From: Candidatus Methylomirabilota bacterium
GTDB lineage: Bacteria; Methylomirabilota; Methylomirabilia; Rokubacteriales; CSP1-6
Assembly (NCBI GenBank): GCA_046726415.1
Contig: JBKPAK010000037.1
Span: forward strand, 1 to 10,185
DNA length: 10,185 nt
Reading direction: 5' to 3'
The first letter of the stretch is position 1, and each line of letters starts with the position of its first letter. The position numbers and the translations under genes were made by a program. The notes beneath the pieces are model-generated. The model saw only the letters and a list, made by a program, of their open reading frames with translations. It was not told where the DNA came from and searched no databases. Below are positions 7,768-9,952 of the stretch, in pieces.

Positions 7768-7959
7768 CTAGGTTGCCAAAGCAACGTCAGACCAGGTGCG
7801 ATCCCATCCCCGGTCATAGGCTGCCTGGAGCAGACGCTGTCTCCCTCGCTCATCGAGCTTCCCGACGAGACGCTCGTATAGTGTCAGCAGATCTTCCGTG
7901 CCGATCTCATCTGGTGTGAGAAGCGCCGCGCCCATGCAACGAAGGTGATGCCGTGCCAT
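7768..7959 (-). CDS. Uncharacterised 63-aa protein; paralog of 9195..9428
   Basis: MARHHLRCMGAALLTPDEIGTEDLLTLYERLVGKLDERGRQRLLQAAYDRGWDRTWSDVALAT. SD-like AGGGGGGT, upstream sigma54 motif, and 20/29 identity to the paralog core. Confidence 0.75.
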   Translation of the reverse strand: MARHHLRCMGAALLTPDEIGTEDLLTLYERLVGKLDERGRQRLLQAAYDRGWDRTWSDVALAT

Positions 7960-8015
7960 GTGCCACCCCCCTGTTCCGCGGCCCTGCTTGAAGCTGTGAC
8001 TCTCTCGCGAGAGAC

Positions 8016-8032
8016 GTGCATCTCGTTTGCCA
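8016..8032 (-). promoter_or_regulatory. sigma54 (-24/-12) promoter
   Basis: Minus strand TGGCAAACGAGATGCAC = GG-N10-GC, conserved in sequence and distance with 9485-9501. Confidence 0.7.
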
Positions 8033-8056: not shown

Positions 8057-8085
8057 TTGACAGGCGGTGTCCCGGCAACGATGAT
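8057..8085 (+). promoter_or_regulatory. Putative sigma70 promoter for the HD-domain gene
   Basis: Perfect TTGACA (8057-8062), N17, GATGAT (8080-8085). Confidence 0.5.
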
Positions 8086-8133: not shown

Positions 8134-8828
8134 ATGAGCCAAGAGCTCGATCGACTCGTCGTGGTGAAGTCTGTCATCTACATCTCGGGCGAGCGCGATC
8201 CCAGGGAGCCGGTCCAGCGGCCTCCGGACGAGGGCAAGCGCTATCTCATGGGGCACGACCTGCGGCTGCCGCGCATGCCCGAGAAGCCCACCCTGTTCGA
8301 TTTCTTCAAGTATCGCTTCGGCCCTGCCAATCACCTTCTCCAGTCAGCGCGACTCGCGCAGGCGCCGGCGAAAAGCTCGTGCTGGCGTGCCTGGTGCACG
8401 ACATCGCCATCGCCGGCTTCATCCGAGGCGACCATGGCTACTGGGCCGCCGAGATGGTCGAACCCTACGTCGACGCAGAAGTGAGCTGGGCGATCCGGTA
8501 TCACCAGGCACTGCGCTTCTACCCCGACGAGTCCGTGGGTTACAAGTATCCGGAGCTCTACACGAAGCTCTTCGGAGACAACTATCAGCCCGACGCCTAC
8601 ATCGAGCGGGACTACCGCTACGCGCGCGAGCACAAGTGGTACATGACAGCGCGCCTGCTGACGGTCAACGACCTCTATGCTTTCGACCCTACCGTGAAGG
8701 TCGAGCTAGAGGAGTTCACGGACGTGGTGGGCCGGAACTTCAGGCAGCCCAAGGAGGGGCTGGGCTTCGACGCGACCCCGTCGGCGCACATGTGGCGCAC
8801 CATCATGTGGCCGACGAAGTACCTGTAG
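8134..8828 (+). pseudogene. HD-domain protein (PhnZ/MIOX-like motif pattern) with a frameshift near 8360-8375; start may lie upstream (8092)
   Basis: First frame: ...FDFFKYRFGPANHLLQSARLAQ. Second frame: EKLVLACLVHDIA...DHGYWAAEMVEPYV...WAIRYHQ...NDLYAFDP. Together these give the H..HD..H..H..D ligand series. Confidence 0.8.
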
Positions 8829-8945: not shown

Positions 8946-9098
8946 TCAGATGCGACCGGCCAACAATAGGATGACAATGATGAGGAGCACCAAGCCCAGC
9001 CCGCCACTGGGGTAGTACCCCCAGCCCGAGCTGTAGGGCCACAACGGCAGCGCACCGATCAGCAACAGAATCAAAATGATGAGAAGGATCGTGCTCAT
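8946..9098 (-). CDS. DUF3309-like small membrane protein (50 aa)
   Basis: Not in the ORF track. GGAGG SD, then MSTILLIILILLLIGALPLWPYSSGWGYYPSGGLGLVLLIIVILLLAGRI, containing the characteristic GALPxWPYSxxWGYYPSGGLG motif. Confidence 0.93.
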   Translation of the reverse strand: MSTILLIILILLLIGALPLWPYSSGWGYYPSGGLGLVLLIIVILLLAGRI

Positions 9099-9194: not shown

Positions 9195-9428
9195 CTACGC
9201 GGCGACCTCCACTTCGCCTGCGTTTCGATCGCATCTCTGCTGCCGTGCCTTGAGTGGGCGCTGTCTGCCGTGGTGGTCGAGTGCGGCCTTGAGTAGGCGC
9301 TGTTTGCCCTGGTGGTCGAGCTTTCCGATGTAGTGTTCGTACAGAGTGAGTAGGTCCTTCGTATCAAGCCTGGCCAGTGTTTTCAAAAGGGTCAGCTGGC
9401 GTATGGCCGGGACGCGATGCGGTGCCAT
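9195..9428 (-). CDS. Uncharacterised 77-aa protein; paralog of 7768..7959
   Basis: Strong SD AGGAGGT, then MAPHRVPAIRQLTLLKTLARLDTKDLLTLYEHYIGKLDHQGKQRLLKAALDHHGRQRPLKARQQRCDRNAGEVEVAA. Upstream sigma54 motif. Confidence 0.8.
   Translation of the reverse strand: MAPHRVPAIRQLTLLKTLARLDTKDLLTLYEHYIGKLDHQGKQRLLKAALDHHGRQRPLKARQQRCDRNAGEVEVAA
9247..9320. repeat. 35-bp direct repeat, 39-bp period (in-frame 13-aa duplication)
   Basis: gccttgagtgggcgctgtctgccgtggtggtcgag (9247-9281) versus gccttgagtaggcgctgtttgccctggtggtcgag (9286-9320), 3 mismatches. Confidence 0.92.
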
Positions 9429-9473
9429 GTACCACCTCCTGTTCGGAACCACGGAGGAAATATATCCTCTCGA

Positions 9474-9501
9474 TGGCAATACAAGTGCATCTCTCTTGCC
9501 A
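9474..9501. promoter_or_regulatory. Overlapping bidirectional sigma54 promoters sharing one TGCA -12 element
   Basis: TGGCA-ATACAAG-TGCA-TCTCTCT-TGCCA reads GG-N10-GC on both strands and lies between divergent ATGs at 9428 (-) and 9534 (+). Confidence 0.7.
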
Positions 9502-9533
9502 GGAGCCCGCGAAGGGAGGTGCCGGGACGGATC

Positions 9534-9755
9534 ATGAAACCACTCGTGATCGTGGGGATCATCCTGATCGCGATCGGCGTCATCGCGTTGGCCTACGGAG
9601 GCCTGAGCTTCACCACCAGCGAAAAGGTGGCGGAGATTGGCCCGTTGAAAGTCGAGAAGGAGAAGACGCGGACTGTCCCTCTGCCTCCTCTGCTGGGCGG
9701 GGTGGCCCTCGCCGGGGGCATCGTGTTGCTCGTCGTGGGTGCCCGCAAGCGCTGA
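9534..9755 (+). CDS. DUF3185-like small two-TM membrane protein (73 aa)
   Basis: MKPLVIVGIILIAIGVIALAYGGLSFTTSEKVAEIGPLKVEKEKTRTVPLPPLLGGVALAGGIVLLVVGARKR: TM, IGPL beta segment, PLPP, TM. GGGAGGT upstream. Confidence 0.88.
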   Translation: MKPLVIVGIILIAIGVIALAYGGLSFTTSEKVAEIGPLKVEKEKTRTVPLPPLLGGVALAGGIVLLVVGARKR

Positions 9756-9952
9756 GGAGTGAGCCGGGTTCCGCGAGGCGCGTTTCTAGGTCTCCCATCT
9801 CGCTAGCCCAAGGGAGCGCCCGGCCTCCGCGGCGAAGCGCTCCAGCGCCGGCGCATCCATCTGAGGGCGGGGCCTCAGGATCAACCGGCGGACTCCGGCC
9901 GCCGCATAGGCCTCGACTGTCGTTTTGTCCGGCAGATCGAGACCCGGCGGGG

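Follow-up and report, generated by a model that had tools for sequence, protein, structure and literature searches.

Pairs of sigma-54 promoters that fire outward from a common region have a precedent in E. coli, where Lutz et al. are said to have described, in 1990, divergent back-to-back sigma-54 promoters in the hydrogenase-3 cluster (cited in PMC3844500). Sigma-54 holoenzyme forms a long-lived closed complex at its promoter until an ATP-driven activator fires it. To our knowledge, a logic in which two orientations compete at one symmetric promoter has not been described for sigma-54, and in the literature that we searched, in which subscription journals are thinly covered, no sigma-54 promoters sharing a -12 element are described. 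Bidirectional promoters that owe their two directions to a symmetric -10 element are known for sigma-70 (PMC12825309; bioRxiv 10.1101/2020.01.31.928960). In the accessible part of PMC12825309, the basal transcription of the five promoters tested is given as too low for polymerase competition, and sigma-54 or RpoN has 0 occurrences.

The locus described here lies in a window of 10,185 bases, which is the whole of contig C37 in a genome of 7,604,788 bases (67.5% GC, 352 contigs). A pattern scan of the window finds an exact match to TGGCA-N7-TGCA-N7-TGCCA, TGGCAATACAAGTGCATCTCTCTTGCCA, at 9474-9501, a 28-bp palindrome with a perfect core that presents a -24/-12 element on both strands. A sequence-only reading of the window had called it two -24 boxes that share one -12 element, and its motif and coordinates are exact in the sequence, as are the GG at 9475-76 and GC at 9487-88 that it gave for the plus strand and, for the minus strand, the GG at 9500-9499, which goes with that same GC. 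The plus-strand element, TGGCAA-TACAA-GTGCA (9474-9489), has a predicted start near 9500, with an ATG at 9534, 34 nt further on; the minus-strand element, TGGCAA-GAGAG-ATGCA (9486-9501), has a predicted start near 9475, with an ATG at 9428, 47 nt further on. Both starts had been placed on the opposite promoter's -24 box, which agrees with the arithmetic of 12 nt past the GC, and by this geometry the two divergent starts would be ∼25 bp apart with TGCA common to both. The distance from GG to GC is exactly 10 bases on both strands, and the same distance is found in the minus-strand site of a second, related cassette (cassette B) discussed below. The two half-sites are identical at 10 of 14 symmetric positions, and their likeness past the core consists of TGGCAA and an alternating A, while the counterpart in cassette B is a weaker palindrome (8 of 14).

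None of 200 shuffled versions of the window holds any match to the palindrome, even with one mismatch permitted, and the window itself holds the single match described above; for the shorter TGGCA-N7-TGC the window has 3 occurrences where 0.45 are expected, a count reached or exceeded in 5 of 200 shuffles. When forward and reverse sites were compared across offsets, the best two-sided score belonged to the window's palindrome, in a comparison in which shared bases inflate offsets 0 and -11. The 28-base pattern has one exact occurrence in the whole 7.6-Mb genome, where base composition leads, by arithmetic, to an expectation of ∼0.02. At the N7/N7 spacing the genome contains 1 exact, 0 one-mismatch and 20 two-mismatch matches (including cassette B, 8005-8032), compared with 8-20 two-mismatch matches at control spacings from N4 to N10. 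The palindrome is a real feature and not a random one, yet it stands alone and does not represent a class.

The genome-wide scan was widened to the phylum and to prokaryotes at large, and the symmetric form, for which the sequence-only reading had suggested a scan between divergent genes, showed no excess. With both spacers left free between 5 and 9, the 251 genomes of the phylum yielded 54 sites, 33 of which have at least one 7-base spacer by hand tabulation, as would be expected if many of them are ordinary sigma-54 promoters. The 7/7 combination is represented by the window's site alone, where a uniform spread would give ∼2, and a reversed-pattern control returned ∼99 sites by hand count. 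A collection of 185,579 prokaryotic species contains at least 80 loci with the pattern. Among the 80 matches listed, long open frames contain 67 and a crude test puts 6 between ORFs that face outward; no comparable symmetric divergent promoter was found among them. The best candidate of that scan, L190, was rejected as it is not a divergent pair: at 260-380 of this Acidobacteriota locus the 28-bp pattern is flanked on either side by long inverted arrays of a CACTCAGCA-like repeat, and the site looks like the hairpin of a repeat element and not like a promoter pair.

We asked how sigma-54 is used in this genome by comparing motif counts at the sigma-54 spacing with counts at other spacings, taking DNA outside crude gene calls (27% of the genome) as non-coding-like. 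The sigma-54 gene, rpoN, is present: the Sigma54_DBD profile matches two loci with 208 and 201 bits (C125:3521-3994 and C271:16337-16810 of G000), one of which could be foreign because the contamination of the genome is 4.66%. The copy on C271 lies ∼2 kb from an activator gene (13028-14293), and the genome as a whole has 32 strong Sigma54_activat stretches, corresponding to ∼30 enhancer-binding-protein genes. Genome-wide, the sigma-54 spacing of TGGCA-N6-TTGC is found 60 times and each of nine control spacings 19-28 times, and in the non-coding-like DNA the counts for GGCA-N6-TTGC are 106 versus 44-52; the looser GGCA-N7-TGC has 434 occurrences against a mean of 343 (sd 26), which leaves ∼90 real sites. 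The genome clearly uses correctly spaced -24/-12 promoters, and its favoured -12 element is TTGC with C, G or T as the next base. Other -12 variants after TGGCA equal or exceed their highest control counts, with 18 for ATGC (controls 6-15) and 25 for GTGC (controls 9-24), and GGCA-N4-AGATGC occurs 10 times versus 3-5 at control spacings.

The particular -12 element of the palindrome is not one of the favoured kinds. TGGCA-N7-TGCA is not enriched as a class (27 versus 15-40), and TGGCAA-N6-TGCA occurs three times in the genome, each time inside the window. In these three sites the T before GGCA fits the genome's usage, and the A that follows GGCA and the A that follows TGC are the bases least used at their positions. 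A G before TGC, counted after bare GGCA, shows no excess (109 versus 106.8), while an A there is enriched. From these noisy counts a crude, sequence-only posterior comes to ∼0.67 for each of the two sites on the minus strand; for the plus half it is 0.09.

The minus half faces an orphan gene of 77 aa, gene A (9195-9428, minus strand), whose product is predicted to be all-helical. Its paralogue in cassette B, gene B (63 aa; 7768-7959, minus strand), is preceded by its own -24/-12 element, TGGCAA-ACGAG-ATGCA (TGGCAAACGAGATGCA; 8017-8032, minus strand), and the genome has no copies besides A and B. Across 37 aligned codons A and B have identities of 0.73, 0.73 and 0.35 at the first, second and third codon positions, and differing codons encode 14 of the 22 residues that are conserved, a pattern by which A and B are, to judge from their coding sequences, real and old paralogues under protein-level selection with saturated synonymous sites. 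When the upstream regions are aligned, TGGCAA..GAGATGCAC is identical at 14 of 16 positions between the two cassettes and the RBS and start are also kept; the remaining leader is not conserved, and the minus half is the best-conserved non-coding block that the cassettes have in common. This conservation follows the -24/-12 positions of a single strand and does not extend to both half-sites, and against such a saturated background an identity of 14 of 16 has the look of a selected -24/-12 element. The spacer (A/C)GAGATGC is shared by cassette A, cassette B and a further site at 9230-9245; sigma-54 itself does not need the GAGA.

On the other strand of cassette B, the sequence-only reading had noted TCGCG in the place of the plus-strand -24 box and a TTGACA promoter for the divergent HD gene, and both are there: TCGCG is found at 8005-8009 and a sigma-70-like TTGACA-17-GATGAT at 8057-8085 (plus strand), facing the HD-domain gene. 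The same reading took the TCGCG for decay, and the plus half may equally be a gain in cassette A as a loss in cassette B. The HD-domain gene itself (8134-8828) spans two frames, with its N-terminal part running from ATG 8134 and its HD part from ∼8360-8375, near GCGAAAAGC, and the change of frame is either a frameshift or an assembly error.

The product of gene A reaches the cut-off of no Pfam family, and profile and Atlas searches found no recognisable DNA-binding domain in gene A and no usable Atlas match for it; its AlphaFold model is of low confidence (pLDDT 56.7). Gene A had no homologue in any of 60 related genomes or in a collection of genome contigs and, in a large protein collection, was matched by six near-identical proteins only. 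Gene A contains a 39-nt tandem duplication at 9247-9320 with 35-nt copies that are 91% alike; two related proteins (P0003 and P0004) are without 13 residues at this duplication, and two others (P0005 and P0006) are cut to 49 aa. The single metagenome hit (L005) was rejected as a relative, the match being spurious and lying within another gene, whose product presumably is a TsaC/Sua5 protein.

Behind gene A, on its 3′ side, lies a small membrane-protein gene of the DUF3309 family (8946-9098, minus strand; 78.3 bits), with homologues in 63 of the family's 159 genomes (genome G011 in the tally). A forward sigma-54-like site scoring at least 17 is present 40-82 nt upstream of DUF3309 in 18 of 27 loci other than our own, and 11 of the 27 have a site scoring at least 18.5; both are raw counts among kin that are not independent, from a set that leaves out L107 (G011) and L129, where the upstream sequence is too short. 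In the same-genus genome G002 the site CGGCAGGCAAGTTGCA lies 90 nt upstream of the gene. In the window, DUF3309 is probably read through from the palindrome, co-transcribed with gene A, or else transcribed from the weak third -24/-12-like site, CGGCAGCAGAGATGCG, at 9230-9245 (minus strand), which is within the 3′ end of gene A and ∼130-140 nt before DUF3309. The motif at this third site is GGCA-N-AGAGATGC. Upstream of another DUF3309 homologue (L122, G157:C322), the palindromic octamer GGTGCACC occurs twice, ∼30 nt apart, and overlaps the -12 box; we take it to resemble NtrC half-sites.

The plus half faces a gene for a small membrane protein of 73 aa (9534-9755, plus strand). Its earlier label, 'DUF3185-like', holds loosely, in that the protein is small with two hydrophobic segments and scores 15.5 bits where the family cut-off is 25.3, and no Pfam family is found above cut-off. 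Homologues are present in 80 of 159 genomes of the family (G011 in the tally). We collected 90 homologue loci beyond the window's own, made up of 29 and 60 from relatives and the genome's own paralogue on C146 (G011 is absent here), and a forward sigma-54 site scoring at least 18.5 of a possible 20.5 lies 25-70 nt upstream of the start in 14 of these 90, which are kin and not independent, spread over five genera (g47, g53, g15, g5 and g20). Shuffled controls gave 0.12 such loci (never more than 2 in any of 200 rounds), and the count on the reverse strand, over the final 80 nt, was 0. The window's plus-strand site scores 18.5 and lies 60 nt upstream of the start, and a G before TGCA, as in this half, or a C there also occurs in the -12 boxes of relatives (CGGCACGAGACGTGCA in L076, with G before TGCA, and TGGCATCGGTGGTGCA in L122). 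A strong sigma-54 site is absent in 76 of the 90 loci, and neither the nearest homologue locus (L012, 68% identity) nor the C146 paralogue has a sigma-54 site. In the window, the 105-bp gap between the two start codons (9429-9533) contains no sigma-70-like site, and the plus half is the sole promoter-like element found before the 73-aa gene. Judged by the predicted sites of their homologues, DUF3309 and the DUF3185-like gene, the two conserved genes on either side of the palindrome, come under sigma-54 repeatedly in related genomes.

The homologues also show other upstream arrangements. In genus g50 the homologue of the 73-aa gene directly follows, at a distance of a few bases, another gene, the DNA of which ends, in 13 of the loci (L016, L018-L020, L022, L025, L030, L031, L035-L038 and L040), in a conserved gtcaactgggaagtcgtcgagcag...ttctga that in a by-eye translation resembles the C-terminus of a superoxide dismutase. 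In ten further loci (L013-L015, L017, L021, L024, L027, L028, L039 and L047), GTGTCAAG(A/G) is conserved upstream of the homologue; this is probably the -35 box of a neighbour's divergent sigma-70 promoter, because its reverse complement holds TTGACA.

A related arrangement was found in genus g53, where at five loci (L065, L072, L073, L077 and L081) a gene of the same membrane-protein family is divergent from csbD. In this pair each gene has one sigma-54 site, the two sites being back to back and ∼97 bp apart, and an activator gene lies ∼1.2 kb off in 4 of the 4 g53 genomes searched (G223, G227, G228 and G229). In G229 the domains are those of CsbD (72.4 bits), of an NtrC-type activator (REC-AAA+-HTH_8) and, past the membrane-protein gene, of a hybrid kinase. 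At L131 (G229:C7:587800-592300), L132 and L133 the activator gene and csbD share a strand, and the membrane-protein gene is read from the other, with the hybrid histidine kinase beyond it; TACC(C/G)GGTA is found just upstream of one of the two sigma-54 sites of the module. A further predicted sigma-54 promoter in the family, TGGCAC-N5-ATGCA, precedes pilA in genus g50, beside a response-regulator gene. Pairs of sigma-54 promoters that point outward to small stress-type genes recur in this family, and by its sequence the arrangement in the window looks like a g53-type pair that has been compressed until the -12 elements coincide.

The elements that could bring an activator to the palindrome were searched for in the window. 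The window lacks the TACCSGGTA motif of the g53 promoters, a search of it for enhancer-like repeats gave none, and the 10-kb contig holds no activator gene. An enhancer upstream of either promoter would fall inside the opposite gene. The nearest match in the same genome to the g53 activator is 53% identical and lies on C271; at this identity it is not a clear orthologue, and we rejected it as the window's activator. The sequence-only reading had proposed an either/or switch set by enhancer position, and this proposal is not supported by what we found: no enhancer site was seen, and co-regulation by one activator is favoured over a direction switch because the g53 relatives keep two separate promoters beside one activator gene.

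Material from sequencing runs also touches the locus. Soil and sediment metagenome runs contain near-identical words of the window, and one DNA contig (run X1) covers 9466-9852 with 2 differences. In one small soil RNA library (run X20), a contig covers 9524-9681 on the 73-aa gene with 1 difference in 158 nt, and a more divergent one covers 8994-9090 on DUF3309. The X20 contigs are a weak hint of expression that carries no start or strand, and they speak neither for nor against the promoter reading.

Setting the motif and its uniqueness beside the sigma-54 machinery of the genome, the conservation between the paralogues and the sigma-54 sites at relatives' genes, all of which are observed, we propose that the palindrome may be two interleaved sigma-54 promoters on opposite strands with one common -12 core, a reading that, on comparisons of sequence, we think has about equal chances of being right and wrong. 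The self-complementary TGCA would serve as the -12 core of both. The minus promoter would drive gene A and probably DUF3309, and the plus promoter would drive the small membrane-protein gene at 9534. In the family, DUF3309, the DUF3185-like protein and CsbD would belong to a group of small stress-type proteins that come under sigma-54 and an NtrC-type activator. Because the GC pair is common and each -24 box lies on the other's predicted start site, we infer that a single orientation could be occupied at a time, and each -24 box would lie in the region that the other promoter melts. The most likely behaviour, as we infer it, would be co-induction of both directions by one common activator, with the orientations competing at each binding event; a direction switch, for which we found no evidence, seems less likely than co-induction. 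A more specific version, in which long-lived closed complexes in two orientations compete at a natural, perfectly symmetric promoter and one activator fires whichever is bound, such that the two stress operons are induced together in the population but are mutually exclusive and anticorrelated in single cells, is offered tentatively, as a possibility that we regard with some doubt.

The serious rival to this proposal holds that the minus half works alone, that the plus-strand TGGCA is there by chance or through a constraint on the leader of gene A, and that the membrane-protein gene has another, unrecognised promoter. We consider this unlikely, if still deserving real weight. Cassette B keeps the minus half and not the plus GG, the posterior given above is far higher for the minus sites than for the plus half, most homologue loci of the membrane-protein gene have no strong sigma-54 site, and, as TGCA is self-complementary, the palindrome is completed by just five more bases on the opposite side. 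A constraint on the leader is suggested by an AT-centred inverted repeat, GAGGAAATATATCCTC, at 9454-9469, 4 nt upstream of the plus-strand -24 box, which folds into a hairpin in the leader predicted for gene A (-20.8 kcal/mol, z -2.09, a fold matched by 4 of 200 shuffles) with the TGG of the plus box pairing at its base, but this hairpin has no counterpart in cassette B. An exact TGGCA at the required position would arise by chance ∼1 time in 1000 by arithmetic, and the palindrome is unique in 7.6 Mb. The likeness of the half-sites, moreover, goes beyond the core, no alternative promoter-like element precedes the membrane-protein gene, and its family is a recurrent sigma-54 target, all of which argue for a plus half that functions.

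Two further explanations take the palindrome away from sigma-54 in whole or in part. Its chief role could be that of an operator for a dimeric transcription factor, which might be the gene A product in control of its own promoter, and the sigma-54 likeness would be secondary. A 28-bp inverted repeat with this degree of symmetry, placed where the gene for a small helical protein of no assigned function has its promoter region, is what such an operator might look like, and the weaker palindrome beside the paralogue and the GAGA spacer, kept in both cassettes and at 9230-9245 beyond what sigma-54 needs, point the same way. We nevertheless think it quite improbable: TGGCA-N18-TGCCA is not enriched in the genome (4 versus 1-10 at other spacings), gene A has neither a recognisable DNA-binding domain nor a confident model, the conservation between cassettes A and B tracks the -24/-12 positions of one strand, and the homologous genes elsewhere have ordinary one-way sigma-54 sites. 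That neither half works, the palindrome being a chance or structural feature such as a scar of recombination or duplication, is in our view more improbable still; it would suit a single instance whose -12 variants are atypical for the genome, but not a unique site that is conserved across saturated paralogues and correctly placed for two genes, both of whose families have sigma-54 sites in relatives.

If the palindrome is indeed two interleaved sigma-54 promoters, the choice of orientation at the common -12 core could become a real regulatory step, and its 28 bp with two GG dinucleotides would make a compact test bed. The otherwise uncharacterised families of small proteins, for their part, gain a regulatory context, with DUF3309, the DUF3185-like protein and CsbD as recurrent sigma-54 targets in a family of soil bacteria and, in g53, with a dedicated two-component activator beside such small stress-type genes.

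Among the closest described systems are the symmetric sigma-70 promoters of PMC12825309, as far as its accessible part describes them: there, as would be the case here, one pseudo-symmetric core is read both ways with a fixed short distance to the start and mutually exclusive binding. In the palindrome, the shared element is a sigma-54 -12 TGCA with two -24 boxes, not a -10 hexamer. The palindrome would work like a symmetry-based bidirectional promoter but is not a member of that class, given that 9429-9533 is free of sigma-70-like sites. Competition between orientations could matter more at the window's site than at those promoters because sigma-54 needs an ATP-driven activator and its closed complexes are long-lived. 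The (methyl)phenol catabolic system (PMC5175336), from what the accessible part of that paper gives, resembles the present locus in that divergent promoters in one intergenic region affect each other; it differs in that its promoters are of sigma-54 and sigma-70 type and do not overlap, and in that the coupling is driven by transcription and not by competition for a single site.

Also close, by the type of promoter, are the g53 pairs and the hydrogenase-3 cluster, where two sigma-54 promoters fire outward, presumably under one activator, as is proposed here, and the g53 pairs have in addition the same membrane-protein gene family on one side. In contrast to such back-to-back pairs, which in g53 leave room for an enhancer between promoters that can both be occupied, the promoters of the window interleave and share a GC pair. 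The type IV pilin promoter of g50 has the same -24/-12 spacing and the ATGCA -12 element of the minus half, and it differs in a spacing of 7/9, not 7/7, and in having no mirror -24 box. If it is a two-way sigma-54 promoter, the palindrome would be a rare type, supported in silico, with each of its halves backed separately by comparison.
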